Positions 1 to 44,291 of a stretch of DNA of 44,291 bases are shown here, piece by piece (positions within the stretch are counted from its first letter, which is position 1; the number at the start of each line of letters is the position of its first letter). The notes beneath the pieces are model-generated. The model made no database searches and was not told where the DNA came from. It saw nothing but the letters and a program-made list of their open reading frames with translations. Source of the stretch: a virus; the IMG/VR virus record IMGVR_UViG_3300000976_000022, positions 1 through 44,291 of that record. One strand, 5' to 3'. The position numbers and the translations under genes were made by a program.

Positions 1-49
1 TATCTTGGATAACAAAACCTTTTACAACGTTTTCACCTTCACTAGCAGC
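1..49. repeat. Terminal direct repeat (assembly overlap). Nt 1-49 are identical to nt 44243-44291, so the contig closes on itself.
   Basis: Read directly: tatcttggataacaaaaccttttacaacgttttcaccttcactagcagc occurs at both ends in the same orientation. An ORF reads through the joined ends without interruption. Confidence 0.95.
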
Positions 50-319
50 AGGTATTTCAACAGCAACCGGGGCTTCAAAAAATTCAGGGTTAGCTTCAAT
101 ATAAGCAACACCGCTTTTAGACGCCATAAAAGCAGGGTGGTTATTTGCATCAACCATTTCTTCATTACGCAATGCAAATTCATTAGTAAGAAGAATATCT
201 GTATCAGCATCATTTTCATAATGAACAATATTACCATTTTCTTCTGTTGATCCAGCGCAAGCGGCAAGCCCGGCAAGAATGGTATGGGCGGCTAGTGTCA
301 TAGCAATTTTAGTAGACAT
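1..319 (-). CDS. Lipoprotein, 5' part. The ATG is at 317-319. The ORF leaves the window at nt 1 and continues 44242 -> 43875, giving 228 aa in total.
   Basis: Manual minus-strand translation gives MSTKIAMTLAAHTILAGLAACAGSTEENGNIVHYEND... It has a short basic n-region, a hydrophobic h-region and the lipobox L-A-A-C. An AAGGA-containing RBS lies just upstream. The frame is continuous with ORF 43875..44102 across the junction. It is missing from the ORF track because it has no stop at this end of the window. Confidence 0.8.
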   Translation of the reverse strand, partial: MSTKIAMTLAAHTILAGLAACAGSTEENGNIVHYENDADTDILLTNEFALRNEEMVDANNHPAFMASKSGVAYIEANPEFFEAPVAVEIPAASEGENVVKGFVIQD

Positions 320-369
320 ATCTTTTCCTTATTTAAGATTAAAAGCTTCAGCGTGAAACTTGTACATTA

Positions 370-630
370 TTATCTAGTACAATCATAAACCCTTTGCAAG
401 TCTGTTTTTATACTTTTCTTCAAAATATTCATAAAATAGGTGTAATCAACTTTGCCGTTTACAATATCTAAAACACATAACCTATCAACAGAACCTAAAG
501 GGCCTACTGTAATAACGTCTATATGATTATTAGTATTATTACACCTTATATAAAGATGGGAAAAATCAGAAGCACGTTTAACAAATTCTTTTACATTAAT
601 TTTTGACATATCAACTAACCTTTTTAACAC
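370..630 (-). CDS. Hypothetical protein (86 aa)
   Basis: ORF on the leftward early coding strand between the ParB-like gene and the lipoprotein gene. No motif recognised. Confidence 0.6.
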   Translation of the reverse strand: MLKRLVDMSKINVKEFVKRASDFSHLYIRCNNTNNHIDVITVGPLGSVDRLCVLDIVNGKVDYTYFMNILKKSIKTDLQRVYDCTR

Positions 631-665
631 TTTATTAGGTATAAATGTTAAAGATTAATTAAACG

Positions 666-1040
666 TTAATCAGAAACGTCATATGTAGAAGAAGGTGCAG
701 GTAAATTAGAATAACCAAATCTTACAGCTTTTATTGTATCTTTACCAGATATTAAAGCTTTTGTCATTCTATGACGACCATCTAATATATAACCTTCAGG
801 GTGTAATATAATAGGGTATTTAAGATCAGCATCATTAACCTTTTTAACATGCGCTGCTATTGTTAAAAGATCATTACCGAAACTAACAGTATTGGCAAAA
901 GAAAAGCTTTTAATATCTAAATCAAATACTTCAAGCTCTTTAGCACATTCAACTAAATGCGCTATAGTCCATCTACTACCTTCATAACTAACATTTTGGT
1001 TTTTTAAACCATCCCATAAATTAGGTAATTCAATCGGCAT
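666..1040 (-). CDS. ParB/sulfiredoxin-like nuclease-domain protein (124 aa)
   Basis: KYPIILHPEGYILDGRHRMTKA matches the ParB N-terminal domain core (hydrophobic strand, G, then DGxHR). Its start overlaps the preceding small ORF. Confidence 0.6.
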   Translation of the reverse strand: MPIELPNLWDGLKNQNVSYEGSRWTIAHLVECAKELEVFDLDIKSFSFANTVSFGNDLLTIAAHVKKVNDADLKYPIILHPEGYILDGRHRMTKALISGKDTIKAVRFGYSNLPAPSSTYDVSD

Positions 1041-1194
1041 AATTAATCATCCTATAAGTTTGTTCTAAAGACCATTCTATACAGTCTTCAACAATATATT
1101 CTGGTTCTTCACCAGCTTCTAACCGTGCCCACAATACGGGATGCAGCGCCTTTGCAGCTTTCCATAAATAAGCATCACTAATCTTTAACGTCAT
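1030..1194 (-). CDS. Small ORF (54 aa), below the ORF-track length cutoff
   Basis: Manual translation gives MTLKISDAYLWKAAKALHPVLWARLEAGEEPEYIVEDCIEWSLEQTYRMINYAD. It has an ATGA start/stop overlap with 1191..1397, and its 3' end overlaps the ATG of 666..1040, filling an otherwise empty gap. Confidence 0.5.
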   Translation of the reverse strand: MTLKISDAYLWKAAKALHPVLWARLEAGEEPEYIVEDCIEWSLEQTYRMINYAD

Positions 1195-1397
1195 ATATCA
1201 GTAAATTCTTTATCAATAGTTGTATAATTACCACATGAAGGACATTTAATACTATCTTGCATATGTGCGTTATAACCAGAATTATGATATTTAGGTGTCC
1301 ATAATTGATGACTAACATCATCTTCTTCATAATGTAATAATACACCACAAATACAACATTCACATTCTAAAGGAATATTAACTATTGTAACAGTCAT
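1191..1397 (-). CDS. Small zinc-ribbon-like protein (68 aa)
   Basis: Cysteine clusters CECCIC and CPSC lie about 35 aa apart. The start codon overlaps the stop of the upstream gene at 1397. Confidence 0.6.
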   Translation of the reverse strand: MTVTIVNIPLECECCICGVLLHYEEDDVSHQLWTPKYHNSGYNAHMQDSIKCPSCGNYTTIDKEFTDI

Positions 1398-2278
1398 TAT
1401 TTCAATCCTTTAATAATCTTATCAAGTTGGTATTTATCCCATGCCGTTTCTTCTTCACGTTCACGCCATGCATTAGGTTCAATAGCTTCTTTAATATGAC
1501 CTTGAATTAAGTCAACTAAAACTTGTGGTTCAAGTGCATCCAATTCATATGCATCATTTCCATATAATTTAACAAACTTGGCGTGTCTGCTATCAGAAGC
1601 CTTAGCCCAAAACGGTTTAGGTTGATACTTTTTTATTTGATCTTGATTTAATGCAATACGTCTAAAATCAAATGTATCACCGTTACTTAAAAGGGTTAAA
1701 TAATCTTGTATAGATCGCGGTATATCCATACCACTAGGATCAAAATCACCCAAGTATAAATATATAACATCCCTACCTTGCGCCCTATTCCATCTTAAAC
1801 GCTTTGCTGCTTCATACATAGCTGAAACAGATACAAAACCCTTACAAGCAAAAAAGTTAACATCATAGTCAAAACAGGCTTTTTCTAAAACGCCTATCAA
1901 AGCGTCTTTTTCACACCATACTTCAAACCGTACATCTTGACCTTTCCACATATCTTTATTGTAGGTATGGTATAGGCGTGTAATAGCATCTTTAGGGCTG
2001 CTATAATTCTTACGCCCGGATAATGAACGCGCCCGGTCTTCTATCATATCCCAATCAATTAGACCTGCTAAACGGGCATTTTTAAGCAGTTCTGATAGCA
2101 TTTTATATGACTTTTGGCTACTCTCTACATAACCCCTAGAAAGAAATTGATAATAGATTTGACGCAAAGAAAGCCTATAACCTTGATTATAGTATTCTTG
2201 AACAATTTCACGTGCTTGTGTTATACGATCATGTGAAGCAGCATGAAAATTATTATCTTTAAACCATTCTAAAGCCAT
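1397..2278 (-). CDS. Stand-alone Spo11/topoisomerase VI-A-like protein (5Y-CAP winged helix + Toprim), 293 aa
   Basis: LSLRQIYYQ matches the catalytic-tyrosine motif R-x-I-Y-Y. VWCEKDALIGVL carries the Toprim Glu. YLGDFDPSGMDIPRSI carries the Toprim DxD-P-x-G. No GHKL ATPase (B subunit) occurs anywhere in the genome. Confidence 0.7.
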   Translation of the reverse strand: MALEWFKDNNFHAASHDRITQAREIVQEYYNQGYRLSLRQIYYQFLSRGYVESSQKSYKMLSELLKNARLAGLIDWDMIEDRARSLSGRKNYSSPKDAITRLYHTYNKDMWKGQDVRFEVWCEKDALIGVLEKACFDYDVNFFACKGFVSVSAMYEAAKRLRWNRAQGRDVIYLYLGDFDPSGMDIPRSIQDYLTLLSNGDTFDFRRIALNQDQIKKYQPKPFWAKASDSRHAKFVKLYGNDAYELDALEPQVLVDLIQGHIKEAIEPNAWREREEETAWDKYQLDKIIKGLK

Positions 2279-2478
2279 TATTCTTTATCTTCTAATTCAT
2301 TAGCTATTTGAAATAAATGTGATGATACTATATCACATTTACCCGCTAAGTTACGTATTTCTTCAGCACCATATCCGTTATCAGAATTACGAATATTTGT
2401 CAACAATTTAGAATTATCTAGCATATCTTTTTGAATACGCCCTAATCTAACTTTACCAGTATCTTTTATATTACTCAT
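2278..2478 (-). CDS. Hypothetical protein (66 aa)
   Basis: The ORF is coupled to both neighbours, sharing nt 2278 with the next start and overlapping the previous stop by 4 nt. Confidence 0.6.
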   Translation of the reverse strand: MSNIKDTGKVRLGRIQKDMLDNSKLLTNIRNSDNGYGAEEIRNLAGKCDIVSSHLFQIANELEDKE

Positions 2479-2711
2479 TTTATGCTAACCTTCCATCCTG
2501 TTTTTTTAGTATATTTAACAGACAATCTTTTACTATCACACGGTATTACATTATTAACTGCAACAGGTCTAGGATCAACCCAAAAATGAGTTTTAACCAT
2601 AACATAACCCTTAACACATGATTTACTATCTAATACTTCACAAGGCCATACATTACAACCGTTATAATAAAAGTGAGTACAATTACTACTATCAATAATC
2701 TTACCCATCAT
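2475..2711 (-). CDS. Hypothetical Cys-rich protein (78 aa)
   Basis: The ORF overlaps both neighbours. It contains six Cys residues (CTH..., GCNVWPC, SKSC, IPC). Confidence 0.6.
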   Translation of the reverse strand: MMGKIIDSSNCTHFYYNGCNVWPCEVLDSKSCVKGYVMVKTHFWVDPRPVAVNNVIPCDSKRLSVKYTKKTGWKVSIK

Positions 2712-2895
2712 CTTCTACCATATCAGCATAATATTCATCTGCTAAACTATTCATATCAAACCGGGTATTTAACAACGCCCATTTGATCCATTTAATATCA
2801 TTGTCAATAACCCATCTAACGGTTTTACCCTTATGTTTACCAAACCTAAGAGTATCGTATAAAGAGTATTTATAATAAGATACTTTATGTGACAT
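2701..2895 (-). CDS. Small protein with an FGKHKGKT...W..W motif (DUF3820-like)
   Basis: LRFGKHKGKTVRWVIDNDIKWIKW resembles the FGKYKGKT...YL.W signature of the small DUF3820-type domain. A second, weaker copy lies at 4825..5061. Confidence 0.4.
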   Translation of the reverse strand: MSHKVSYYKYSLYDTLRFGKHKGKTVRWVIDNDIKWIKWALLNTRFDMNSLADEYYADMVEDDG

Positions 2896-2901
2896 AACTA
2901 A

Positions 2902-3021
2902 TTACCTTTTATTATCAAACTTTTTAGCTTCTATAATGATTAATCTAATAACATGCAAGATTAAAGCTATTAATACACCCGGTACTATAGAATAATAAAA
3001 TATTTTTAATAAAATAATCAT
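2902..3021 (-). CDS. Small hydrophobic peptide (39 aa), below the ORF-track cutoff
   Basis: Manual translation gives MIILLKIFYYSIVPGVLIALILHVIRLIIIEAKKFDNKR, with one predicted TM helix. It has an ATGA overlap with the stop of the resolvase-like gene. Confidence 0.45.
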   Translation of the reverse strand: MIILLKIFYYSIVPGVLIALILHVIRLIIIEAKKFDNKR

Positions 3022-3488
3022 AATCCAACAGACCATAAAAAATGGTCATAATAAACTTCATAACATTTAAGAAATTCACGCTTAGATACAATAACAGGTG
3101 TTCTATAATTAACAGGTATAAAATTACTACCTGATTTTGCAAATGACTGCATTAAAACACCATTTAACATAACTTGCCATTGGTTACGCGCCGATCTGTA
3201 AAATAATAATGGTTCTTTGCCCACACTATTGGCTTGTTCAACAGCCTGTTTCCACCATTTAGGTAATAGCAGTTTTTCAGCAAACTTAACTTCAACACAA
3301 TATATGGGTATATCTATATCACCAGACTTATCACCGCTATATTGATCTAAATTACGGTACAGTGAATTAGATAAAGCTATTTGAGGGTTAACACCACGTT
3401 TTTTTTCAACTCTTTGCATAACCTCTTTAAATAAAGCTACAACTTCATTTTCACCGCGCTTACCTTTTGTTTGTGATTTCTTAGCCAT
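3018..3488 (-). CDS. PD-(D/E)xK nuclease, Hjc-like Holliday-junction-resolvase candidate (156 aa from the ATG at 3488)
   Basis: KGKRGENEVVALF ... GDIDIPIYCVEVK has the E...D...E-V-K arrangement of Hjc-type resolvases. I chose the start at MAKKSQTKGK rather than the longer track ORF. Confidence 0.55.
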   Translation of the reverse strand: MAKKSQTKGKRGENEVVALFKEVMQRVEKKRGVNPQIALSNSLYRNLDQYSGDKSGDIDIPIYCVEVKFAEKLLLPKWWKQAVEQANSVGKEPLLFYRSARNQWQVMLNGVLMQSFAKSGSNFIPVNYRTPVIVSKREFLKCYEVYYDHFLWSVGL

Positions 3489-3592
3489 AACTAAAACCCC
3501 CATATTGTTTAGCGCTTTTAAGAATATGAGCAATAACTTCTATTGTCCATCCATTACCAAGCATTTTATAACGTTTATATTATTAAATGACA

Positions 3593-3952
3593 CTAATTTA
3601 GCACCTTCATTACCTTTTCACGTTTACGTCTTAATATACGTCTATGCCAACTTAAAGCAAGAAGTATTTCAAGATGTATATCATTACACATTTTAGCATA
3701 ACCACCGCAAATATAATTATGAATATAACTATGACATTCATTACATAGTGTAATGCCGTTACTTATAGTAAATCTTAATTCAGGGAAGTATTTAGCACTT
3801 TTTATATGATGGGCATGACGATTTTTACGACTACCGCAACATTGGCATACTTTATCACGCCTAATAACATAAATTTTCCATAACCTATATAAGCGCGATT
3901 TGCGCCATAGTTTATCAAACTTTTCAGGAAATTGTTTTAAAAGATCATCCAT
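3593..3952 (-). CDS. HNH endonuclease (119 aa)
   Basis: CQCCGSRKNRHAHHIKS ... NGITLCNECHSYIH is the HNH beta-beta-alpha-Me motif with flanking CxxC pairs. Confidence 0.85.
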   Translation of the reverse strand: MDDLLKQFPEKFDKLWRKSRLYRLWKIYVIRRDKVCQCCGSRKNRHAHHIKSAKYFPELRFTISNGITLCNECHSYIHNYICGGYAKMCNDIHLEILLALSWHRRILRRKREKVMKVLN

Positions 3953-3982
3953 TAAACATACTCCACAAAGAATTTAGATGGA

Positions 3983-4011
3983 TCGTTATCATAGGCTTAT
4001 TTTTTGGTCAA
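3983..4011 (-). promoter_or_regulatory. Candidate sigma70-type promoter for the HNH operon segment (TTGACC - 17 nt - TAACGA)
   Basis: It aligns in register with the promoters at 8172 and 12872. All three share the same 53-54 nt distance from the -35 box to the ATG and the same leader ending cttgtGGAGt before the start codon. Confidence 0.45.
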
Positions 4012-4015
4012 GACC
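4006..4015 (-). repeat. GGTCTTGACC motif, copy a (exact)
   Basis: Read directly. Its TTGACC doubles as the -35 box of the promoter above. Confidence 0.9.
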
Positions 4016-4016
4016 T

Positions 4017-4070
4017 AAAAATAGAAAAACCCCGGCTGCTAAATTACATCATTGTAATAAGGAGCCGGGG
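4017..4070 (-). terminator. Rho-independent terminator (long compound hairpin plus U-tract)
   Basis: On the minus strand the outer stem is CCCCGGCU / AGCCGGGG and the inner stem is AUUACA / UGUAAU. The hairpin is followed by UUUUUCUAUUUUU. Confidence 0.7.
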
Positions 4071-4135
4071 TTAATTTGGGGGCTTTCTAACTCAAATGAA
4101 TTAGAAAACTGAATGTGCAAACGTGAATGGATGCA
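4022..4135 (-). ncRNA. Candidate phage small RNA (~110 nt) bounded by its own promoter and terminator
   Basis: There is no ORF on either strand. A TTGACA-16-TATTAA promoter lies upstream and a terminator downstream. An internal hairpin is UUUCUAAUUCAuuUGAGUUAGAAA. AUUCA occurs three times at roughly 15-nt spacing. Confidence 0.4.
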
Positions 4136-4141
4136 ACACCC

Positions 4142-4169
4142 TTAATATATAATAATTTATGGTTGTCAA
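4142..4169 (-). promoter_or_regulatory. Candidate sigma70-type promoter (TTGACA - 16 nt - TATTAA)
   Basis: Read directly on the minus strand. The -35 hexamer is perfect. Confidence 0.5.
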
Positions 4170-4172
4170 GGT

Positions 4173-4225
4173 GAAAACCCCATTAAATCGAGAGAGTTCA
4201 AGCACATTGATCTAATAGGGTTTTC
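4173..4225. other. Extended bipartite inverted repeat (8 + 8 bp stems, 19-nt apical loop) in the 3' UTR of gene 4254..4703
   Basis: GAAAACCC (4173-4180) pairs with GGGTTTTC (4218-4225). ATTAAATC (4182-4189) pairs with GATCTAAT (4209-4216) at 7 of 8 positions. Confidence 0.6.
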
Positions 4226-4253
4226 GGGGCGCGTCTATTATCTAGCAGATAAA

Positions 4254-4703
4254 TTATGTAGGATCAACTAAAATATAATGTTCTTTAGGTACTAATAATG
4301 TACTTGATACATATACAAAATTACGCCCGGTTTCCTGTAATTTTATATGACCTAATGCAGCATCAATAATAAATAATCTTGCATAATCGTTATCATAAAC
4401 ATGTAAGAAATTGTAAAAATTAGCAGCCTTATTTACAAGCTTTGAAACATCTACTGCTGTTTCACTCCACCCCCTAGTATTAGGATCACGAAAGTTAAAA
4501 TTAAGTTTAGCACCGGGAATAGTTAAATCATGGCCTGTTTCAATGATAGGTGTTGCAGCAGCAGTACCAGCTATATCAACATCTTCTACATGTTCATTTT
4601 CTATAATATAGCTAATTACAGGTAGTAATACAAGATCATCAAAAGATTTACCTTTTGTGTTATCTGTAGCTTCTTTTAATTGTTCTTCATATTTGGTACG
4701 CAT
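4254..4703 (-). CDS. Hypothetical protein (149 aa) in its own transcription unit
   Basis: The ORF has an upstream TTGACA promoter and an AGGGGAA RBS. It is followed by a structured non-coding region. No motif recognised. Confidence 0.7.
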   Translation of the reverse strand: MRTKYEEQLKEATDNTKGKSFDDLVLLPVISYIIENEHVEDVDIAGTAAATPIIETGHDLTIPGAKLNFNFRDPNTRGWSETAVDVSKLVNKAANFYNFLHVYDNDYARLFIIDAALGHIKLQETGRNFVYVSSTLLVPKEHYILVDPT

Positions 4704-4742
4704 GGTTAAATTCCCCTATAAAATGCAATTTAATAAGGAAAT

Positions 4743-4770
4743 TAATTACCCAAAACTTAAACAGTGTCAA
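4743..4770 (-). promoter_or_regulatory. Candidate promoter (TTGACA - 16 nt - TAATTA)
   Basis: Read directly on the minus strand, 61 nt upstream of the ATG at 4703. Confidence 0.4.
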
Positions 4771-4824
4771 GGTATTATATAATGATAACGCCGGGCATAT
4801 TCATTACACATTATTATATCTATA

Positions 4825-5061
4825 TTATAATAATGATCCTTTTCCACACCTATCTGTTACACGTTGTTTTTCATCTAATAAACTCCAATTTAACAACGTT
4901 AAAGCCTTACCGCTAAGTTTAATATATTTACGCTTATATATGTAAATTAAATACTTAGGATTATGTTTTATTATATAACCTATCGTGTACCCTTTATACA
5001 TACCTTGCGGCATTATAAAACGTTCTTGATAAGATGTTAAACCAGACCATTTAGAGGCCAT
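4825..5061 (-). CDS. Hypothetical protein (78 aa), weak DUF3820-like pattern
   Basis: MPQGMYKGYTIGYIIKHNPKYLIYIY loosely resembles the FGKYKGKT...YL.W signature. The start overlaps the upstream small ORF. Confidence 0.5.
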   Translation of the reverse strand: MASKWSGLTSYQERFIMPQGMYKGYTIGYIIKHNPKYLIYIYKRKYIKLSGKALTLLNWSLLDEKQRVTDRCGKGSLL

Positions 5062-5227
5062 AAGAACGCGATTTCATACGGCTTTTATTACCCCTTTTTC
5101 TACGTTTCTTGATATTTGATTTTGTACCCGGTTTACACTTTGGCGGGCTAGGATCGTTCATATCCCATCTTAGATTACATGTAGAACAATACATTTCATC
5201 AATTTGTTGTCTAGCATTACAAGCCAT
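5051..5227 (-). CDS. Small Cys-containing basic protein (58 aa), below the ORF-track cutoff
   Basis: Manual translation gives MACNARQQIDEMYCSTCNLRWDMNDPSPPKCKPGTKSNIKKRRKRGNKSRMKSRSYGL. It fills the 5062-5239 gap, and its stop overlaps the next start. Confidence 0.45.
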   Translation of the reverse strand: MACNARQQIDEMYCSTCNLRWDMNDPSPPKCKPGTKSNIKKRRKRGNKSRMKSRSYGL

Positions 5228-5239
5228 ATTACCTAGTCC

Positions 5240-5512
5240 TTACATAAAGTTAGCTGGATCGTAATCACCATATAAAAGGCTAAACGAAACAGGCATTGAA
5301 AGCACCATTACCATTATATCATTATATTTATGTTTATTTGTAAAATCAACTGCTTGTTTGCCAAATAGATGTATAGCAAATTCACGGTTAATATGTATTT
5401 CTTTCGGTCTTGGATAACTAGCCGGGTTAGTGGCTGCTGAAAGTATTATTTCATAGCTTTCTAATCGTGTAGGCGGCTCTACAACAACTAAACCATTTAT
5501 AACATCACTCAT
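5240..5512 (-). CDS. Hypothetical protein (90 aa)
   Basis: The ORF shares nt 5512 with the upstream stop (ATGA-type coupling). Confidence 0.6.
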   Translation of the reverse strand: MSDVINGLVVVEPPTRLESYEIILSAATNPASYPRPKEIHINREFAIHLFGKQAVDFTNKHKYNDIMVMVLSMPVSFSLLYGDYDPANFM

Positions 5513-5742
5513 TATAAAACCTTACATTCTCTATCTTTTAATAGATTGTTTTTCACCATTCTTACGGTTGATGTAGAAGAACGATTAACACCCATGTACG
5601 TACTCATTTTAATACCATTTTTCATATAAATTAATTCAGCATGACCGCCATGTGATTTATAATCCAATTTTACATATTCATAACCCGGCATATGCTTGAA
5701 CATTCGTTTAAGATCACGTCTTAATTTACCTTGACCTGCCAT
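5512..5742 (-). CDS. Hypothetical protein (76 aa)
   Basis: The ORF sits in a coupled chain. SHGGHAELIY...STVRMVKNNL has only a faint HicA/YcfA-like pattern, too weak to call. Confidence 0.6.
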   Translation of the reverse strand: MAGQGKLRRDLKRMFKHMPGYEYVKLDYKSHGGHAELIYMKNGIKMSTYMGVNRSSTSTVRMVKNNLLKDRECKVL

Positions 5743-5748
5743 AAATAA

Positions 5749-5856
5749 CTATTCTTGAAGCTTAAAATATAACCATATTAATAAACTAGCTGTTAGAGCA
5801 ACGCAACCTATAATTACATTAATAGCTTTCCATTGTTCAAATGTAATATCAAGCAT
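5749..5856 (-). CDS. Small membrane peptide (35 aa)
   Basis: The internal ATG of track ORF 5749..5961 gives MLDITFEQWKAINVIIGCVALTASLLIWLYFKLQE. This start overlaps the stop of 5849..6073. The longer form would overlap that gene by more than 100 nt. Confidence 0.4.
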   Translation of the reverse strand: MLDITFEQWKAINVIIGCVALTASLLIWLYFKLQE

Positions 5857-6073
5857 TTTTAAACCTCTTACGCTCTTTACGTTCACACCACGCCTTAGCT
5901 TGTTTAAGTGTTCTAAAGGGGTTTGATTGATCCTTAACGTGCCATTCTGTAGGATCGCCATATTGAGCTATAAATTCATTGTTTTTATATACAATAAAAT
6001 AATCTTCATTTTGGCTAACCCATCCATCATTAGCACCATGAATAGACCATTGTAATAATCGCTTTTTAGTCAT
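5849..6073 (-). CDS. Hypothetical protein (74 aa)
   Basis: The ORF shares nt 6073 with the upstream stop. Confidence 0.6.
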   Translation of the reverse strand: MTKKRLLQWSIHGANDGWVSQNEDYFIVYKNNEFIAQYGDPTEWHVKDQSNPFRTLKQAKAWCERKERKRFKNA

Positions 6074-6267
6074 TATTTATCCTTAACTTTTTTAATAACT
6101 TCATCAATATCTAAATCAGGATCATATGATATATTAGTATATTCATATTCATTTTTAAATACTACAATATACCAATCACCATCAATAAAAAAATCCTTAA
6201 ATTCATAACCGGGTATTCCATTAATGCGTTTTTGTAGATTTAATTCATACTCTCTTAAAGAAGTCAC
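6073..6267 (-). CDS. Hypothetical protein (64 aa, GTG start)
   Basis: The ORF lies on the coding strand. The first codon read from the sequence is GTG. Confidence 0.5.
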   Translation of the reverse strand: MTSLREYELNLQKRINGIPGYEFKDFFIDGDWYIVVFKNEYEYTNISYDPDLDIDEVIKKVKDK

Positions 6268-6269
6268 TT

Positions 6270-6419
6270 CTATAACCTATTCTTAATTGATGATAATAGC
6301 AAACGTATTTCTTCACTCTTATCATACTGTAATTTTAGACGCCATATAATAACGCCTAATAAAACAGCTATGATTAAGCATTTAATCAACATACCGGGAT
6401 GCAATTGTACTTCAATCAT
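6270..6419 (-). CDS. Small membrane peptide (49 aa), below the ORF-track cutoff
   Basis: Manual translation gives MIEVQLHPGMLIKCLIIAVLLGVIIWRLKLQYDKSEEIRLLLSSIKNRL. It has an ATGA overlap with the upstream stop at 6416. Confidence 0.45.
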   Translation of the reverse strand: MIEVQLHPGMLIKCLIIAVLLGVIIWRLKLQYDKSEEIRLLLSSIKNRL

Positions 6420-6661
6420 TGTATTTTATTCTTAACACTATCTTCTTCATAAATAGCCTTAATATCATTATTGGTTTTATGGTTCTGATCCATCATTTCC
6501 TTATAGGTTATAATATCCGATCTGTATAAAGCAGTATAAAAACCCCTAAAATATATCTCATATTCAGTAGATGGTTTATTTGTATAGATTGTTAAGATAG
6601 CACTATCTTTATAAAGCGCTTCCATTCTATTCCATTTCTTATTAAACTTAAATGTAACCAT
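6416..6661 (-). CDS. Hypothetical protein (81 aa from the internal ATG)
   Basis: A start at MVTFKFNKKW lies 1 nt after the stop of 6663..6971. The longer track ORF would overlap that gene by 110 nt. Confidence 0.55.
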   Translation of the reverse strand: MVTFKFNKKWNRMEALYKDSAILTIYTNKPSTEYEIYFRGFYTALYRSDIITYKEMMDQNHKTNNDIKAIYEEDSVKNKIQ

Positions 6662-6662
6662 T

Positions 6663-6971
6663 TTAATACGTCCTATGTTCATTGTTTGGATCACCGCCAT
6701 TACGCTTATATAAATAAATTGCTTCACTATGGCAATCATCGCTACATGTATAACCACATCCATGATCTTCATAACTATTATCTGAATATTCTTTTAATTC
6801 CATTTGCCCACAATATGCACATTCGCCAAAATCGTTATATTCATTACGGCAATCTTTAGAACAATAGTTTCCACCGCCATAAGTAATAACTTCATCGGGG
6901 CTTTCATAACCTTCTTCAAGAAAGTTAATATCACAATTTTCACATACTAATGAATTACACATTTTTTTCAC
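6663..6971 (-). CDS. Cys-rich protein with two tandem CxxC-x(20-23)-CxxxC modules (TRASH/FCS-type zinc-binding pattern), 102 aa
   Basis: Module 1 is CENC...(23 aa)...CSKDC. Module 2 is CAYC...(20 aa)...CSDDC. Confidence 0.5.
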   Translation of the reverse strand: MKKMCNSLVCENCDINFLEEGYESPDEVITYGGGNYCSKDCRNEYNDFGECAYCGQMELKEYSDNSYEDHGCGYTCSDDCHSEAIYLYKRNGGDPNNEHRTY

Positions 6972-7016
6972 TTCACAATAAGTTATACGAACAACATATA
7001 TTAATGTATATAGTTG

Positions 7017-7262
7017 TCAAGTACTAATTCGTTTTAAAATTTCCTTTTTCGCACTATCTAATGATTTACATTTAATAGGTTTTAAAACAACTCTAACACC
7101 GCTTTTTTTAGTATGTATTAAAAAAGCAAAATAAATAGGGTCTTTATCATATTTAGCAATATTAGCTAAATGGGTTTCTTTATAATTTATACCCGTATTA
7201 ACACGTTTGTATAAATGCCAACCTTTAACACCTTCAGCTTCACTTTCGCACCAATATAACAT
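7017..7262 (-). CDS. Hypothetical protein (81 aa)
   Basis: ORF on the coding strand. No motif recognised. Confidence 0.6.
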   Translation of the reverse strand: MLYWCESEAEGVKGWHLYKRVNTGINYKETHLANIAKYDKDPIYFAFLIHTKKSGVRVVLKPIKCKSLDSAKKEILKRIST

Positions 7263-7275
7263 TGTAACAACCTCT

Positions 7276-7464
7276 TTAAGATTTAGCTTTACTGATCATA
7301 ACAAGATTATCAGAACGTGGATCAATACCACTTATTAAACCTGATTTTTTACATTTAGCAGGTATAAAAAAATCGTCAATTTTACCAGCCTGTACAACAA
7401 ACTTTTGTATTGATCCATCTGAATAACGTATTCCGATAGTGTCACCTAATCTAGCTTTAAACAT
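7276..7464 (-). CDS. Hypothetical protein (62 aa), first gene of the leftward early operon
   Basis: AAGGAAG RBS lies 8 nt upstream of the ATG, and a promoter sits about 30 nt further upstream. Confidence 0.65.
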   Translation of the reverse strand: MFKARLGDTIGIRYSDGSIQKFVVQAGKIDDFFIPAKCKKSGLISGIDPRSDNLVMISKAKS

Positions 7465-7498
7465 TTATCTAACTTCCTTAATAACGTTTTCTATAACT

Positions 7499-7528
7499 AT
7501 TATATGACATAATAAAACAACGTTGTAA
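7499..7528 (-). promoter_or_regulatory. Leftward early promoter candidate (TTACAA - 18 nt - TATAAT)
   Basis: Read directly on the minus strand. The -10 hexamer is perfect, and the promoter is correctly placed before the first leftward gene. Confidence 0.55.
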
Positions 7529-7570
7529 AGAACTATTTTCATTATTTTATAGATTATTTTTGATCTTTTC

Positions 7571-7850
7571 CCCGGATGGGGTGTACACTCATTCATATAT
7601 ATAGAACATTTTCAATAATGTAATTGACTATTAATTAGTCGATAATTTAAGCAATATTTCAAATATTCTATACATATTCATCACTTTTACTATCATTTCT
7701 AATCGTTTAAATGATATTCATAGCTAAGTCATTGATAACAAACGATTATTTATAGTTTAACCTACTAAATACATTATTATATGATAGTAGTTTACATTAT
7801 GGTACATGTTCTAACTATCCGGGTGAGTGTACCACCATTTCAATAATGTA
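7571..7850 (+). repeat. Two diverged direct copies of a ~35-bp element (7571-7622 and 7819-7850)
   Basis: Copy 1 is cccggatggggtgtacac...cattttcaataatgta. Copy 2 is tccgggtgagtgtaccac-catttcaataatgta. Copy 1 carries an ~18-bp insertion. Confidence 0.75.
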
Positions 7851-7934
7851 TACAGGCGTCAAATAAGAACGTCACGACTAAGCTATTGATTTTAAAGGAT
7901 TAATTATTTTATGACGTTTTTATACGCAAAATAA

Positions 7935-7966
7935 GCTGCATTATTTTTTAATAGCGCTGCATTATT
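7935..7966 (+). repeat. Direct repeat GCTGCATTATT x2, 21 bp apart centre to centre, with a third TGCATTATT at 8109-8117
   Basis: Read directly. The second copy abuts a TTGACG hexamer at 7971-7976. Confidence 0.8.
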
Positions 7967-8062
7967 GATCTTGACGTAACGTGTGGTTAAAATTTAATGC
8001 ATATAAAGATAACGTTATATTTATGTAAGAAAGTCATGTAATTGTTCATGGTAACTTATTTG

Positions 8063-8099
8063 ATGATAGAATTGATGAATATTTGAATGATAGAAATTG
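8063..8099 (+). repeat. Direct repeat ATGATAGAA(A)TTG x2, with related ATGATAGTA at 7781-7789 (+) and 7688-7696 (-)
   Basis: Read directly. Four copies of ATGATAG(A/T)A lie within about 410 bp of non-coding DNA. Confidence 0.75.
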
Positions 8100-8171
8100 C
8101 TAAAAATTTGCATTATTCTGTAATGTTTAGCACGACGATAACAAAAATGCAGGGAAGTTAAAAATTAGTGC

Positions 8172-8200
8172 TTGACAATCATATATCAGTCATTTACTTA
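8172..8200 (+). promoter_or_regulatory. Rightward early promoter candidate (TTGACA - 17 nt - TACTTA)
   Basis: The -35 hexamer is perfect. It has the same architecture and leader (cttgtGGAGt) as the promoters at 12872 and 4011. Confidence 0.5.
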
Positions 8201-8231
8201 GGCTCTAAATTATTCTTGTGGAGTAAAGAAA

Positions 8232-8411
8232 ATGGCATTAATTGAACGTACCGAATATCACGTTATAGAGGGTGAAGATGAATATGGTGAAGCTGTTGCA
8301 TGGTGTAATAGTTTACAAGAAGCCAAAGATAAAATATATACAAAATATGGTGAAGGTCATATAATATGTAAAGTTACATATTTTTGTAAAGAATATGAAG
8401 TTGTGAGTTAA
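8232..8411 (+). CDS. Small protein (59 aa), below the ORF-track cutoff; first rightward gene
   Basis: Manual translation gives MALIERTEYHVIEGEDEYGEAVAWCNSLQEAKDKIYTKYGEGHIICKVTYFCKEYEVVS. A GGAG RBS lies 9 nt upstream. Confidence 0.6.
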   Translation: MALIERTEYHVIEGEDEYGEAVAWCNSLQEAKDKIYTKYGEGHIICKVTYFCKEYEVVS

Positions 8412-8414
8412 AGT

Positions 8415-8612
8415 ATGTCATATGATTTTGATATTTCTGATTTGAATAGAATAACAACCATAATTAAAAATCATCCTACTATGGTAGGTATTGATTATCG
8501 TTTTAAAGATATTCAAATAAGAATAACAGATTGTTCTACCTTTAAAGTTGTTAATTCTTATGGTGAATTTATGACTGAAAAAGAAATGCGTAAAATTGAT
8601 AGTGAGGGTTAA
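8415..8612 (+). CDS. Hypothetical protein (65 aa)
   Basis: ORF packed tightly in the rightward operon. Confidence 0.6.
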   Translation: MSYDFDISDLNRITTIIKNHPTMVGIDYRFKDIQIRITDCSTFKVVNSYGEFMTEKEMRKIDSEG

Positions 8613-8840
8613 ATGGCAGTCAATTGGCCTTATAAAAAACTAAGTATAGAGACTGATAACGGTATGATGTTTATAATAAAATGTCAATTATCTAGTCTTT
8701 TTGTTCAAGATGGTAATAAAAAAGGATTACCTAAAAAATGGACAAATGAATTTAAACAATCTTGCTTATTTAATGAACATAATGCAGATAAACTTATAGG
8801 ACGTTTAGTTAAAGCTTATCCGAAAGCGGTAGATCAATGA
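8613..8840 (+). CDS. Hypothetical protein (75 aa)
   Basis: The start directly abuts the previous stop. Confidence 0.6.
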   Translation: MAVNWPYKKLSIETDNGMMFIIKCQLSSLFVQDGNKKGLPKKWTNEFKQSCLFNEHNADKLIGRLVKAYPKAVDQ

Positions 8841-9076
8841 TAGTTAAACGTATATCATCACGTACATTTAATGCGCGTGTAATGGATGTTGCTAAGCAGG
8901 TTCTTGTAAGAAAGAATGAACAAGACCCTAAAGAAAACAGTATATTAATATATAGTGTTGGATCAGAACCGCATGATTGGGAAATAGCTTTAACCTTTGA
9001 AGAAATAGAGGTATTGCACAATCAAATGCAATTAGCTAAAGCAGCTAAGACTAATCAACCAACTTGGAGTAATTAA
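8837..9076 (+). CDS. Hypothetical protein (79 aa)
   Basis: ATGA overlap with the previous stop. Confidence 0.6.
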   Translation: MIVKRISSRTFNARVMDVAKQVLVRKNEQDPKENSILIYSVGSEPHDWEIALTFEEIEVLHNQMQLAKAAKTNQPTWSN

Positions 9077-9077
9077 A

Positions 9078-9338
9078 ATGACTGAAACACCAGTTATTGA
9101 ATTATATGTTATGATTAATAGTAAAGGTCATTTTGCTATTAAAAACGGGACTATAACACATACAGGGGATAAAACCGATTTAACATTTATTAGTGATATA
9201 AATAAAGCTGATTTATTTACATTTAGAGGTATAAATGAAGCTATGAAATATAAAAATTATAAATCAGTTGTAGGTCATTTAAGAGCTTATGAAAACCGTG
9301 TTGTTGATTTGGCTAAAGATATTAGGAAAAAAGATTAA
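9078..9338 (+). CDS. Hypothetical protein (86 aa)
   Basis: ORF packed tightly in the rightward operon. Confidence 0.6.
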   Translation: MTETPVIELYVMINSKGHFAIKNGTITHTGDKTDLTFISDINKADLFTFRGINEAMKYKNYKSVVGHLRAYENRVVDLAKDIRKKD

Positions 9339-10214: not shown

Positions 10215-12590
10215 TTATTTACCTATTCCAAATACATAAGGCATTAAAACAACAAAACCTCGCCCATAGTATTTATATTTTTCACGTATATCATGTAATG
10301 GTAATTCTTGTAATGCGCCTTGTTGTACAAAAGCTTTAATAGTATTATCTAAAGCGTTTCTTGATCCCCTGTAATCATCCTTAAAGGCTATTTTTCTTTT
10401 AAGCTTAGTAAGTACATTAAACGGTATAACCTTATCATGATGCATTTCAGAATTGATTTTAGTACCATGAAATATTTCATCATCATTATGTAAATATTGA
10501 TATACAATAGATTTAAAATCTTCTTCTTGTTTTAATTCTCTATTTTGTATTCCAACACGACCTTTATCAAAACGATCTACAATATTTTTTATTTCTGATA
10601 GTATAACTTGTTTAGCCCAATTTACATTAGATAGGGTTACTTCAGGTGCTTTAGGGTTATCGCCAACTGCTAAAATACCAGCTAATTTTAATAGCTTTAA
10701 ATGCGCTCTATTCCATAGCTGCTTACTTGCATCTTCTTTATTTGTATTAACCTTTGCTGTACAATAGCGGCCAAACTCTTTTAAGGCTGCTTCAGCTTGT
10801 GGTTTGGATTTTATATTATAAGCTACATTTTGACTATTCAAATGAGTAGCAGTAGCTACAAACATCATAAGACTATTACGTAAATTATTATCAGGTTGTG
10901 CTTGTCTATTTTCGTTTAAATCTGGTACTTTTCCATTATATTCAATAACTAAAAAACGTGGTATAAAACCCTGTAAAATCATTTCTTCAGTTATATTACT
11001 ATAAAATGTTTCAGGTACACTTTCACCTAATATAGTTAAGGCCGGGCTATTTATAGCTGCTGTATTATTAGCTTTATCTGAATAAACTAAAGGACGTTTA
11101 ACTTCACCAAAACCAGACTTACCATAAAGATCAAGTAATTCAGCTTTTAATTGTATGTCTGAAGTTGATCTACGAATGTTTTCCATCTTAGCAAGACGTA
11201 AGCCAAATTCGCCAACAACAGATACTATAGAAGGTTGTCTTACCATCTGTTTAATAAGTGCCGATCCTGAAGAAAAATCACTTGGCCCTATATAGTCAAT
11301 TATTGTAGGGCAATTAGGCTGTATATTACTTGATAGGCGTGAAATACCACTAGCAATACTTTCTTTACCTGTACCTGTACCAGCCAATAATAAAATATAT
11401 TGATTAAGCCCTGTACCAGAAATATTATAAGCCCGGCCCGCAATACCAGCCATATAACCGATAGCGCCAGTTATGGCTATTTCTTTAATAGGTCGCGGTG
11501 AAGAATGATAGAAATACTTAGCTATTTCCCCGGTTAAACCGCTAGGCCATTGATCTAATTGATTATCTGAAATTTGCGCGGGGTGCGGGTTAGCAGCTAT
11601 AGCTTCAACAGCAATTGATACTTGTGGAGTGGCAACGCCGGGCGCTATAGCCGCTTCCCCCACACCTTGATTTTGCATAGCAGCTAACATATTCAAACGC
11701 AAGGCTTCAATGTCAACAGGGGGTAATTTTCTATCAAATGAGTATTGAACCATCTTGATTAGATAGTTATTACGTTGCGCTTTATCTCTTTTACCTAATT
11801 CACTGTATCTAAAACATCTTAATATTTGTGATATATTATCTGTATAGTAACTGATAATATTTATTAGTGCAAAATCTGCTTCACTTTGGCTTTGATAATA
11901 ATTAATCCAATTACCTTGAATTAGGTCTTTTGCTTTAGCCCCATTTTCGGCATTTACTATAGTATGATATAATTCATCATCTGTTAGTTTTTGTTCTAAA
12001 GAACCTTGAAATGAACCAGCCTCTATTATTTTTGGTTGCATTTCATCATATAGTATTTTTGTTAATTCTGTACGATCATTTATTTCAGTTTTATTACCGT
12101 ACACATTACCCGTCATAGTCATATAACGATTTGATGAATATAACTCTATTGATCCGCGTCTTCTACCGCTATCAAGATTAGGGGCTTTGCAAATGATATG
12201 CAAACCGTGGCCTGAAGGTGATACTTCAGAATAGCTATCAAAACTATCATATATTTTTTGTTGACGGTTTAATATTTCTAATTGATCTTCACGTGATAAG
12301 AAATCTTTTGGTTTATCAAAGTCAATAAATATATAAGGATCGTTAGCAGTAAGAACAAAACCAATGCCTGTATAATGACCTTGTTGATATACTTCCAAAG
12401 CTTCATCAAATGTAACCCAATTATCAGGTAATGTTACTGAAGCTTTTTTAGCTGTTAAAGGGTTATAAGGTATTTTGGTTTTTTTCCATACAGTTTCACC
12501 TTTAACAATTTCTTCAACGTATTCTTCACGCCATGTAATCCATTGGCGAAAGCTTTTCATTTCAATAGGTATATTATTAAAATTACTCAT
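10215..12590 (-). CDS. AEP primase-polymerase fused to a P-loop (SF3-like) helicase (791 aa)
   Basis: AEP motifs are present: YIFIDFDK (DxD), VSPSGHGLHIIC (SxSGxGxH) and IELYSSNRYMTMTG. A Walker A motif, LLLAGTGTGKES, lies in the C-terminal half. Confidence 0.8.
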   Translation of the reverse strand: MSNFNNIPIEMKSFRQWITWREEYVEEIVKGETVWKKTKIPYNPLTAKKASVTLPDNWVTFDEALEVYQQGHYTGIGFVLTANDPYIFIDFDKPKDFLSREDQLEILNRQQKIYDSFDSYSEVSPSGHGLHIICKAPNLDSGRRRGSIELYSSNRYMTMTGNVYGNKTEINDRTELTKILYDEMQPKIIEAGSFQGSLEQKLTDDELYHTIVNAENGAKAKDLIQGNWINYYQSQSEADFALINIISYYTDNISQILRCFRYSELGKRDKAQRNNYLIKMVQYSFDRKLPPVDIEALRLNMLAAMQNQGVGEAAIAPGVATPQVSIAVEAIAANPHPAQISDNQLDQWPSGLTGEIAKYFYHSSPRPIKEIAITGAIGYMAGIAGRAYNISGTGLNQYILLLAGTGTGKESIASGISRLSSNIQPNCPTIIDYIGPSDFSSGSALIKQMVRQPSIVSVVGEFGLRLAKMENIRRSTSDIQLKAELLDLYGKSGFGEVKRPLVYSDKANNTAAINSPALTILGESVPETFYSNITEEMILQGFIPRFLVIEYNGKVPDLNENRQAQPDNNLRNSLMMFVATATHLNSQNVAYNIKSKPQAEAALKEFGRYCTAKVNTNKEDASKQLWNRAHLKLLKLAGILAVGDNPKAPEVTLSNVNWAKQVILSEIKNIVDRFDKGRVGIQNRELKQEEDFKSIVYQYLHNDDEIFHGTKINSEMHHDKVIPFNVLTKLKRKIAFKDDYRGSRNALDNTIKAFVQQGALQELPLHDIREKYKYYGRGFVVLMPYVFGIGK

Positions 12591-13352: not shown

Positions 13353-13478
13353 ATGTATAAACAGTTCCTATTAAATACTATTTCTTTGGCTGCATTAAAT
13401 GCGGCCTTAGAACCTGCAACTTTTAAAACAGCATATGGTGAATATACAGAAGGTGCGGGTTATCCGTATTACATTTAA
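13353..13478 (+). CDS. Possible small ORF (41 aa)
   Basis: Manual translation gives MYKQFLLNTISLAALNAALEPATFKTAYGEYTEGAGYPYYI. It has a TAATG overlap with the next gene and fills the 13352-13477 gap. Confidence 0.3.
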   Translation: MYKQFLLNTISLAALNAALEPATFKTAYGEYTEGAGYPYYI

Positions 13479-14173: not shown

Positions 14174-14199
14174 AACAGACTAACAAAAAGGAATTTATT

Positions 14200-14895: not shown

Positions 14896-14944
14896 GGTCT
14901 TAATTTACGTTATAATTTCTTTCCCCTTTATAACGTTTTAACTT

Positions 14945-14974
14945 GGCGGGTTTTAATTAACCCGCCCTTTTTTA
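14945..14974 (+). terminator. Rho-independent terminator
   Basis: GGCGGGTT ttaatt AACCCGCC followed by CTTTTTT. Confidence 0.85.
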
Positions 14975-14983
14975 GGTTTTGTT

Positions 14984-16066: not shown

Positions 16067-16070
16067 AATA

Positions 16071-16205
16071 ATGATTGAATTAATAAAAATATTAAGCGTG
16101 TTATTATACGCTATTAATATGGGTATGGCTGTATATTTTTATACTAAACGTAAATATAAAAAAAGTATAATTTGGTTATTATTTGCTATTATTATTGGTA
16201 AATAA
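16071..16205 (+). CDS. Small membrane peptide (44 aa), below the ORF-track cutoff
   Basis: Manual translation gives MIELIKILSVLLYAINMGMAVYFYTKRKYKKSIIWLLFAIIIGK. It fills the gap between the exonuclease and helicase genes. Confidence 0.45.
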   Translation: MIELIKILSVLLYAINMGMAVYFYTKRKYKKSIIWLLFAIIIGK

Positions 16206-16208
16206 TAA

Positions 16209-31293: not shown

Positions 31294-31296
31294 TTA

Positions 31297-43874: not shown

Positions 43875-44291
43875 TTAAGCAGCAGGTGCTTCTTTAGCTT
43901 TCTTTGCAGCAGCCGCTTTTGCACGACGATCTGCAATTTTTTGTAGTTGGACTTCACGCGGTTCTACTTCAACACGTGTAATCATAGAACCTTCTAACCC
44001 GCTTGTTTCATCAAGCACAACACGCGCTTGTTTAAACTTGCGTGTAGCTACACCTTCTTCATCTTTATATTGACGGTTAGCAGCGCTAACAGCAGATTGC
44101 ATAGTTTTCCAAGGTTCATTGTTAGGTTCTTCTTCACCGTTAACACCTTTCCAACCAACAGGGATTGAAAAACCTTGACCTACTTGCAGTTGTCCAAACG
44201 GGTATTTAGAAGATCGTGTACGTGTTGATGGTAGTTTTACATTATCTTGGATAACAAAACCTTTTACAACGTTTTCACCTTCACTAGCAGC
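43875..44291 (-). CDS. Lipoprotein, 3' part (continuation of the ORF starting at nt 319; nt 44243-44291 duplicate nt 1-49)
   Basis: The frame is open from the window end to the TAA at 43875. The track lists only the internal-Met fragment 43875..44102. The C-terminus is ...RRAKAAAAKKAKEAPAA. Confidence 0.8.
   Translation of the reverse strand, partial: AASEGENVVKGFVIQDNVKLPSTRTRSSKYPFGQLQVGQGFSIPVGWKGVNGEEEPNNEPWKTMQSAVSAANRQYKDEEGVATRKFKQARVVLDETSGLEGSMITRVEVEPREVQLQKIADRRAKAAAAKKAKEAPAA
44243..44291. repeat. Second copy of the 49-nt terminal overlap
   Basis: Identical to nt 1-49. Confidence 0.95.

Follow-up and report, generated by a model that had tools for sequence, protein, structure and literature searches.

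Does a viral relative of the topoisomerase VI (Topo VI) A subunit, encoded without a B subunit, work with the small genes packed tightly around it, or does it act by itself? The question is raised by an open reading frame (ORF) at 1397..2278 on the minus strand of a viral genome of 44,291 nucleotides (nt) (positions 1 to 44,291 of IMG/VR record IMGVR_UViG_3300000976_000022, the whole of which we call the window). It sits in a chain of seven ORFs that the original prediction, made from the sequence alone, took for a stoichiometrically co-expressed cassette built around this protein. The protein is a member of the Mini-A family of phage topoisomerase homologues, and comparison with related loci indicates that its flanking genes form no dedicated module; the two statements taken jointly are, in our judgement, very probably correct or better than that. 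The overall explanation, which adds a mechanism to them, we consider probable.

Mini-A (Topo mini-A) denotes viral stand-alone homologues of the type IIB topoisomerase A subunit, which occur in viruses only, lack a B subunit, carry an RxxY/FY motif, a Toprim glutamate, a DxDxxG motif and a C-terminal xWELDAL 'T2BI' box, and form a clade of their own, apart from Topo VI and Topo VIII, in the published trees, with phage NP1 as a representative in Fig. 2 (Takahashi, Da Cunha, Forterre et al., NAR Genom Bioinform 2(1):lqz021; PMC7671362). All seven of the defining features that we tested are found in the window. The gene and its key residues are as follows.

1397..2278, minus strand: Mini-A, 293 amino acids (aa); winged-helix 5Y-CAP domain, then Toprim domain
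2164-2162, minus strand: R39, of LRQIYYQ
2152-2150, minus strand: Y43, predicted catalytic tyrosine, of LRQIYYQ
1912-1910, minus strand: E123, Toprim glutamate, of WCEKDA
1747-1745, minus strand: D178, of GDFDPSG
1741-1739, minus strand: D180, of GDFDPSG
1546-1544, minus strand: E245, of AYELDAL (residues 243-249)

The R-x-x-[Y/F]-Y catalytic tyrosine motif reads R39-Q-I-Y42-Y43 in this protein, the Toprim metal-binding glutamate and the DxDxxG motif are E123 and D178-F-D180-P-S-G183, and the T2BI box xWELDAL takes the form A-Y-E-L-D-A-L. The genome is that of a virus, with virion genes present, and gave no GHKL match. Residues 4-290 of 293 match phrog_6247 'DNA topoisomerase' (E 1.6e-96), and the protein of Pseudomonas phage NP1 is 41.9% identical at 95% coverage (E 5e-65). 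An alignment of 44 diverse homologues has 48 invariant columns; invariant residues include R39, Y43, E123, K124, D178, D180, P181, S182, G183, E245, L246, D247 and L249, and the Y42 and W244 positions are at least 90% conserved. The window lineage departs from the family at three positions that are at least 90% conserved, by H179F (1744-1742), W244Y (1549-1547) and I122C (1915-1913), all of which also occur in a homologue (P0003) 53% identical to the window protein.

An AF2 model (pLDDT 89) has an N-terminal helical and winged-helix part followed by an alpha/beta Toprim part. When it was searched against the PDB with Foldseek, the first four matches were chains of Methanosarcina mazei Top6A (E 3e-6 to 2e-4, prob 1.0), namely the 358-360-residue chains of 9o8p, 9o0g and 9o7o, with about 310 aligned columns; these were the only significant PDB matches. 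Chains A and C of the matched structures are Top6A (PMC13040014). A Foldseek search of the BFVD viral models was uninformative. The three motifs on which the original prediction relied (LRQIYYQ, WCEKDA and GDFDPSG) are thus present in the ORF with R39, Y43, E123, D178 and D180 invariant, the structure search returned the Top6A fold first and not an unrelated one, and the mention of A-subunit-only 'Mini-A' relatives of Topo VI-A and Spo11 is borne out by phrog_6247, the identity to NP1, the motifs and the fold match.

The protein is therefore not new: it is an ordinary member of a described and very common phage family. Homologues were found by tblastn in 78 GenBank phage records at 38-43% identity, many annotated 'DNA topoisomerase', and cultured carriers include Pseudomonas NP1/PaMx25, Salmonella Chi-like phages, Listeria LWP01, and Xylella, Brevundimonas and Pseudanabaena (Pam3) phages. 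An indexed search gave 2,116 clusters at 90% identity, and an exhaustive search 7,394 clusters at 50% identity with E <=1e-3 (4,256 of them with E <=1e-10); more than 564 IMG/VR stretches encode Mini-A. Identity stays at about 40-50% across phages of Firmicutes, Actinobacteria, Proteobacteria, Cyanobacteria and Bacteroidetes.

Inteins typically lie in the conserved active sites of DNA-metabolism enzymes. One long homologue (P0199, 712 aa) has an intein with Hint and LAGLIDADG domains at about residue 120, beside the Toprim glutamate (EVWxEKD). Because the catalytic residues are invariant and an intein sits at this place, the enzyme chemistry of Mini-A is almost certainly used.

The genome was surveyed for a partner subunit. 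An exact 49-bp direct repeat at 1-49 and 44243-44291 is a circular assembly overlap, so the window is a complete, circularly assembled genome of siphovirus type, about 44.2 kb, as had been claimed; its GC content is about 32%, and its virion and lysis genes include terminase, portal, Gp13-like capsid, tail tube, tape measure, tail fibre and endolysin. No GHKL ATPase appeared among the family matches of the window ORFs, those of 100-260 aa having been scanned in part, in line with the prediction that a B-subunit partner is lacking. All ORFs of at least 300 aa match other families, with the sole exception of a 440-aa ORF among the tail genes. The family matches included no SMC-like or JetABC genes, and no tRNAs were found.

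Could the small neighbours take the place of a B subunit? The seven ORFs on the minus strand, 2895 to 666, each have an ATG start. Besides Mini-A they are the following, listed with the gene that precedes the chain.

3018..3533, minus strand: PDDEXK_15 putative endonuclease (PF24608, E 1.8e-11); upstream anchor of the conserved backbone, outside the seven-ORF chain
2701..2895, minus strand: ExoX-like C-terminal domain protein (ExoX_C), 64 aa (PF20600, E 2.4e-7, 30.4 bits against a cut-off of 26.5)
2475..2711, minus strand: Cys-rich protein (Cys78), 78 aa; lineage backbone neighbour
2278..2478, minus strand: orphan ORF (p66), 66 aa; directly upstream of Mini-A
1191..1397, minus strand: zinc-ribbon-like protein (Zn68), 68 aa, CxCCxC ... 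CxxC; directly downstream of Mini-A
1030..1194, minus strand: p54, 54 aa; lineage backbone neighbour
666..1040, minus strand: protein of predicted ParB/sulfiredoxin fold (ParB-like, ParB124), 124 aa; motif PIILHPEGYILDGRHR

All six junctions, read from the sequence, overlap, and the description of the ORFs as overlapping or touching throughout was correct.

2711/2701, minus strand: ExoX_C/Cys78, 11-nt overlap (ATGATGGGTAA)
2478/2475, minus strand: Cys78/p66, ATGA
2278, minus strand: p66/Mini-A, TAATG
1397, minus strand: Mini-A/Zn68, TAATG
1194/1191, minus strand: Zn68/p54, ATGA
1040/1030, minus strand: p54/ParB-like, 11-nt overlap

Such packing is common in this genome, where same-strand neighbours overlap at 21 of 62 junctions and lie within 5 nt at 34 of 62. 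A run of at least six overlapping junctions arose in just 3.7% of shuffles, a point in favour of a module, but under a criterion of <=5 nt the run is expected by chance (54%), and a comparable run lies at 27095-31975. Coupling of the seven ORFs thus goes only marginally beyond chance; co-translation of the local genes is probably real, yet it is ordinary phage gene packing and no sign of shared function. A strongly hydrophobic 44-aa ORF at 2902-3036 (minus strand) bridges the 122-nt 'gap' between PDDEXK_15 and ExoX_C; it overlaps the PDDEXK stop, and its own end lies 6 nt short of the ExoX_C start. Should it be a real gene, the chain of overlaps would reach further upstream than seven genes.

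The neighbourhood of Mini-A was compared, with a simple ORF rule and BLAST or phmmer, in 80 IMG/VR loci with 6-kb flanks whose Mini-A is 39-49% identical, in three loci of cultured phages and in the nearest metagenomic relatives. None of the six neighbours was found by tblastn and phmmer beside Mini-A in the 80 IMG/VR and three cultured-phage loci, the exception being the nearest relative. When the four genes to each side of Mini-A were clustered all against all, 653 proteins fell into 600 clusters, and in a Pfam census of the 25 commonest families in each search no family was matched by more than 5 of 282 neighbour proteins. The families seen near Mini-A include helicases, ThyX, AAA_24, RecT, ligase, prim-pol, DUF669, methylases, recombinases and ParB_N (twice). 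A small conserved upstream partner, as the 'excisionase' of LWP01 or gp52 of PaMx25 might be, was also considered and rejected, no family recurring among 32 upstream small ORFs.

The nearest relatives allow the slot to be followed gene by gene. L001 is the closest; L086 is Logan contig SRR18245250_1264, of which 20 kb of 43.6 kb was examined. Gene orders are given below.

Window: PDDEXK_15, 44 aa, ExoX_C, Cys78, p66, Mini-A, Zn68, p54, ParB124, p86, DUF7303, endolysin
L001 (Mini-A 77% identical): PDDEXK_15, 74 aa, ExoX_C, Cys-rich, DUF3297, Mini-A, Rv2179c-like exonuclease, 67 aa, 109 aa, p54, 80 aa, p86, DUF7303, endolysin
L087 (Mini-A 53% identical): PDDEXK_15, 145 aa, N6/N4 methylase, Mini-A, exonuclease, p54, 81 aa, p86
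L086: PDDEXK_15, ExoX_C, Cys-rich, 234-aa DNA methyltransferase, exonuclease, p54, ParB-like (57%), p86, DUF7303, endolysin

Three of the six neighbours (the 66-aa, zinc-ribbon and ParB-like genes) are missing from L001, and p66 and Zn68 occur in the window only among these four phages of the same lineage. Conversely, the ParB-like, p54, ExoX_C and Cys-rich genes persist in L086, where the slot of Mini-A (8550-9254) holds a 234-aa DNA methyltransferase (phrog_757, E 8e-23) and no Mini-A was found within the 20 kb, the genome plan being otherwise the same. The possibility that the 234-aa protein is a divergent Mini-A was rejected (hhalign probability 0.1%). In L087 the N6/N4 methylase (3364-4125) lies directly upstream of Mini-A. 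These comparisons suggest that accessory DNA-metabolism genes (Mini-A, methylase, Rv2179c-like exonuclease, zinc ribbon or ParB-like) replace one another between the Cys-rich gene and p54, within a backbone (PDDEXK_15, ExoX_C, Cys-rich, variable slot, p54, p86, DUF7303, endolysin) that, as judged from these gene orders, is the same with or without Mini-A.

The individual neighbours fit this pattern. PDDEXK_15 has homologues of 70-72% identity in L001 and L086 and a member of the same Pfam family in L087. It is followed by ExoX_C homologues in L001 (63%) and in L086 (53%), where the slot is without Mini-A; the label originally given to this 64-aa protein, DUF3820-like, was close to the PF20600 ExoX-like_C match now found. 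Cys78 matched nothing in Pfam, PHROG or NCBIfam, and has weak homologues in the same position in L001 (27%, E 2e-6) and L086 (37%, E 2e-15). No match to p66 was found in those three databases or in any of 88 related loci, and its slot in L001 holds an unrelated 85-aa DUF3297 protein. Zn68, zinc-ribbon-like in its CxCCxC ... CxxC pattern, matches phrog_2834, whose function is uncharacterised (E 4.8e-5), and Zn_ribbon_Com at E 0.054 only; it is absent from L001, L086 and L087, which have an Rv2179c-like 3'-5' exonuclease in its slot. Homologues of p54 are present in L001 (76%), L086 (73%, without Mini-A) and L087 (46%). The ParB-like gene is missing from L001 and L087, which do carry Mini-A, and present (57%) in L086, which has none in the slot. 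Its product matches phrog_17560, also of uncharacterised function (E 8.7e-17), but nothing in Pfam (PF02195 at E <=1), NCBIfam or PDB sequences; it has a DGxHR-type motif, ILDGRHR, invariant in three homologues, and Foldseek matches of its AF2 model (pLDDT 75.5) are at the top nearly all ParB-N, Noc, KorB, Srx and SbnI (best E 2.8e-3, prob 1.0). The modelling thus supports a ParB/Srx fold, and of the earlier label 'ParB-like nuclease domain' the fold holds while nuclease activity is unproven. The DUF7303-family gene (228 aa, minus strand, 43875..44291 joined to 1..319) spans the window ends between the p86 and endolysin genes and is 80% identical to L001 12660-13352.

Because p66, Zn68 and the ParB-like gene vary, the backbone is kept without Mini-A and tight packing is genome-wide, there appears to be no cassette: the six flanking ORFs are, on this comparative evidence, ordinary tightly packed operon genes, interchangeable, with no dedicated module among them. 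The claim of a cassette built around Mini-A and expressed stoichiometrically does not stand, since the neighbouring genes vary freely among relatives, the outcome that the original prediction had itself named as refuting it.

Zinc-binding companions deserve separate mention. Cys-rich C-terminal extensions with several CxxC pairs were found in 4 of 271 Mini-A homologues (P0011, P0165, P0173 and P0188), others having Lys/Arg-rich tails, and in 6 of 86 loci a small CxxC ORF lies beside Mini-A (at +1 in L013 and L045, at -1 in L027, L038 and L070, and at 1191-1397 in the window). As a 'Rosetta-stone' pattern, this is a weak hint of a recurring zinc-ribbon companion of Mini-A. The fused tails and the flanking small ORFs have no detectable sequence similarity, and Zn68 was rejected as a homologue of the Cys-rich tails of the long homologues (phmmer E 0.5).

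Gene content around Mini-A drew two further observations. ThyX is next to or near Mini-A in three unrelated groups of cultured phages (among Brevundimonas phage Delta, L089; Salmonella SPN19, L005; PaMx25, L004; and Pam3, L088), and lies within three genes of it in just 3 of about 80 metagenomic loci. Several Mini-A phages carry DNA-hypermodification genes, namely those of Queuovirinae, aGPT-Pplase2 (Pam3), QueC/PTPS (IMG/VR loci), and PAPS reductase with deoxyribosyltransferase (SPN19). A link of Mini-A to ThyX or hypermodification genes is unproven.

How, then, would Mini-A act? We propose that it acts alone, probably as a homodimer, and that it is probably a tyrosine transesterase that depends on Mg and keeps an Arg-Glu cleavage clasp. 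Arg39 would position Tyr43 for attack on the DNA backbone, E123, D178 and D180 in the Toprim fold of the partner would bind Mg2+, and the product would be a 5'-phosphotyrosyl intermediate, as in Topo VI and Spo11. A 2026 cryo-EM study of Topo VI describes an acidic tetrad (E202/D254/D256/E342), an R102-E342 clasp that keeps Y106 off the metal site, and a cleavage-prone E342Q mutant. By motif order and the published alignment, R39/Y43 of Mini-A correspond to Top6A R102/Y106, and E123/D178/D180/E245 to E202/D254/D256/E342, so that Arg39-Glu245 is probably the counterpart of this 'electrostatic clasp'. Since all six residues are invariant as Topo VI equivalents, cutting is expected to be gated and reversible, not constitutive. 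Mouse SPO11 alone makes covalent double-strand breaks in vitro (PMC11922746) and is therefore a precedent for cutting without a B subunit.

The target would be the phage's own DNA, in which Mini-A could carry out transient breakage and reunion, or make recombinogenic breaks, during replication or concatemer processing. This reading is suggested because Mini-A is consistently placed among replication, recombination and nucleotide-metabolism genes and is very highly conserved across phyla. In PaMx25, for instance, it directly precedes Sak4-like/AAA_24, DUF669, Cas4-like exonuclease and helicase genes. We put this specific housekeeping role forward tentatively, as rather short of an even chance. 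The window phage has a recombination and replication module in common with PaMx25: genes at 13478-17921 (AAA_24, DUF669, Cas4-like exonuclease, helicase) are homologous to those directly after Mini-A in PaMx25 (L004 4861-8831), at E 1e-19 to 1e-28 for the first three and by annotation only for the helicase. In the window Mini-A lies about 11 kb from this module.

Several considerations tell against the explanation as a whole. The dimer state of Mini-A, the reversibility of its cleavage and its substrate are all inferred. We know of no Topo VI A subunit that cleaves without the B subunit and ATP, so a stand-alone Mini-A needs some other release of the clasp. Searches of the literature from 2020 to 2026 found no report of biochemical activity for any Mini-A, and reviews up to December 2024 call its function unexplored. 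The Foldseek matches to Top6A have low TM-scores (~0.35) and an rmsd of 16-18 A, which we interpret as a different orientation of the two domains. Pfam, NCBIfam and PDB searches with the Mini-A sequence (phmmer and hmmsearch) gave no link to Top6A and the 44-sequence profile had no match in the PDB, so the superfamily link rests on the fold match, the motifs and the published analysis. As for the neighbours, the six-junction overlap run is nominally unusual, and very divergent small homologues may escape BLAST and phmmer.

A bolder form of the proposal, which we think unlikely, would make Mini-A a self-sufficient viral counterpart of Spo11 that launches recombination-dependent phage replication through programmed protein-linked breaks. 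In the B-free dimer, DNA shape or a small zinc-ribbon or DNA-binding partner, itself interchangeable, would release the Arg39-Glu245 clasp, and the break ends would be processed by the phage's Sak4/AAA_24, DUF669 and Cas4-like exonuclease set.

Another explanation makes Mini-A a replication initiator that, like an HUH endonuclease, nicks or breaks the origin site-specifically and so primes rolling-circle or break-induced replication. This idea was proposed for the skuldviruses of Asgard archaea, viruses without other replication proteins (bioRxiv 10.1101/2021.07.29.453957), and it is consistent with a catalytic tyrosine and metal site as in other initiator nickases and with the location of the gene in replication modules. 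The window phage and most Mini-A phages, however, encode a full replication set (prim-pol, helicase, polymerase and clamp-like factor), which in the window, from the survey of large ORFs, is found together with recombination and packaging genes as follows.

10215-12590: NrS-1-like primase-polymerase
13478-14173: AAA_24 (Sak4-like)
14200-14895: DUF669
14984-16066: Cas4-like nuclease
16209-17921: helicase
18135-19157: clamp-like factor
19157-21139: DNA polymerase
39657-41303: TerL

The Mini-A-free stretch of L086, with the same genome plan, argues against an essential initiator, and no iterons or origin-like site were found beside the gene. An initiator role seems improbable. The Mini-A chain belongs to a leftward operon that runs from a divergent intergenic region at 7465-8231 into the lysis and packaging genes. 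This AT-rich region of 767 bp, a candidate for a regulatory or origin function, separates divergent operons and contains a 49-nt imperfect inverted repeat (7583-7631/7784-7832, 76% complementary) and a palindrome (8003-8024). No convincing iterons were found in the two divergent intergenic regions, and scans of 1-8400 for sigma-70 promoters and terminators gave no more sites than shuffled sequence, and so no boundaries for the supposed cassette.

Mini-A might instead be an offensive or anti-defence factor that cuts host DNA, or acts as decoy or competitor of Toprim-based defences (Wadjet JetD, Gabija). It is distantly related to the JetD Toprim, with one homologue bearing the UniRef name 'DUF2399 domain-containing' and a marginal PADLOC match of the window protein to JetD3 (E 0.017, 12.5 bits, 18 residues), and its dispensability in L086 is typical of accessory genes. 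Its identity of ~40-50% over phages of five phyla, with 48 invariant columns, is unlike that of fast-evolving host-specific proteins; the full catalytic site and clasp, needless for a decoy, are kept; and in PaMx25, Pam3 and the Brevundimonas phage the gene lies among replication genes, not in early host-takeover blocks. We judge this role quite unlikely. Both it and the initiator role are less likely than breakage-reunion or break formation on phage DNA because of the full replication set present here, the absence of Mini-A from the syntenic region of L086 and a conservation unlike that of arms-race genes. Least probable of all is the stoichiometric module, in which small partners (zinc ribbon, ParB-like, ExoX_C and others) would replace the B subunit or aid Mini-A, and which the comparative data largely refute.

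Some features of the surrounding DNA stand apart from these questions. An HNH endonuclease gene (PF01844) lies at 3593-3952 on the minus strand, beside an unusually long non-coding gap of 301 nt (3953-4253). L001 and L086 lack such a gene at the corresponding place, and a homing endonuclease may have been inserted here as a mobile element. When 1-8000 was searched against GenBank phages for distant DNA similarity, the only match was one of 55 nt at 3516-3570, 85% identical to DNA methylase genes in two Pelagibacter phages, HTVC309P and HTVC134P; upstream of the PDDEXK gene, L001 carries a gene for a 100-aa DNA_methylase fragment. Together with the GC content of ~32%, these may hint at a marine SAR11-type host or at a decayed methylase.

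If Mini-A does cut or rejoin DNA without an ATPase partner, it would be a minimal type IIB enzyme and would define a new step in phage replication or recombination; it also bears on the origin of type IIB topoisomerases and Spo11. For such work the window adds little leverage over the cultured Mini-A phages (NP1, PaMx25, Chi-like, LWP01). Its contribution is a negative result, that Mini-A has no conserved partner gene; a natural swap of Mini-A for a methyltransferase in L086, by which, as far as the 20 kb examined go, a phage of this genome plan would not need the gene; and the invariance in Mini-A of the Topo VI Arg-Glu cleavage clasp, which suggests E245Q as a direct biochemical probe.

Among known systems, JetD/MksG of Wadjet has Toprim DxD chemistry and a distant Topo VI-A-like architecture in common with Mini-A but belongs to defence islands with JetABC, whereas Mini-A is phage-encoded with no JetABC found; identity with JetD/MksG was rejected given the 18-residue PADLOC match and the lack of SMC-like genes in the window. 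Spo11 is an A-subunit homologue with the same Tyr/Toprim chemistry, and differs in being eukaryotic and single-turnover and in having TOP6BL and accessory factors as its partners in vivo. The Topo VI A subunit (M. mazei Top6A; 9o8p, 9o0g) has the same winged-helix 5Y-CAP and Toprim fold, although no sequence-level HMM match joins the two. The window protein is ~70 residues shorter and without the N-terminal Top6B-binding segment, which is absent from all Mini-A (PMC7671362). Topo VI has a GHKL/transducer partner, none was found here, and ATP-driven strand passage is not expected for Mini-A; a Topo VI holoenzyme (A2B2) was rejected for want of both the GHKL protein and the B-binding segment. 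The closest likeness is to the Mini-A family itself, in length (293 against ~300 aa), the RxxYY motif, the Toprim glutamate, DxDxxG, the xWELDAL box, the lack of a B subunit and the viral genome, with cultured-phage members 38-43% identical over more than 90% of the length. From that family the window protein differs just by H179F, W244Y and I122C; the genes beside it differ too, a variation common to all Mini-A loci.

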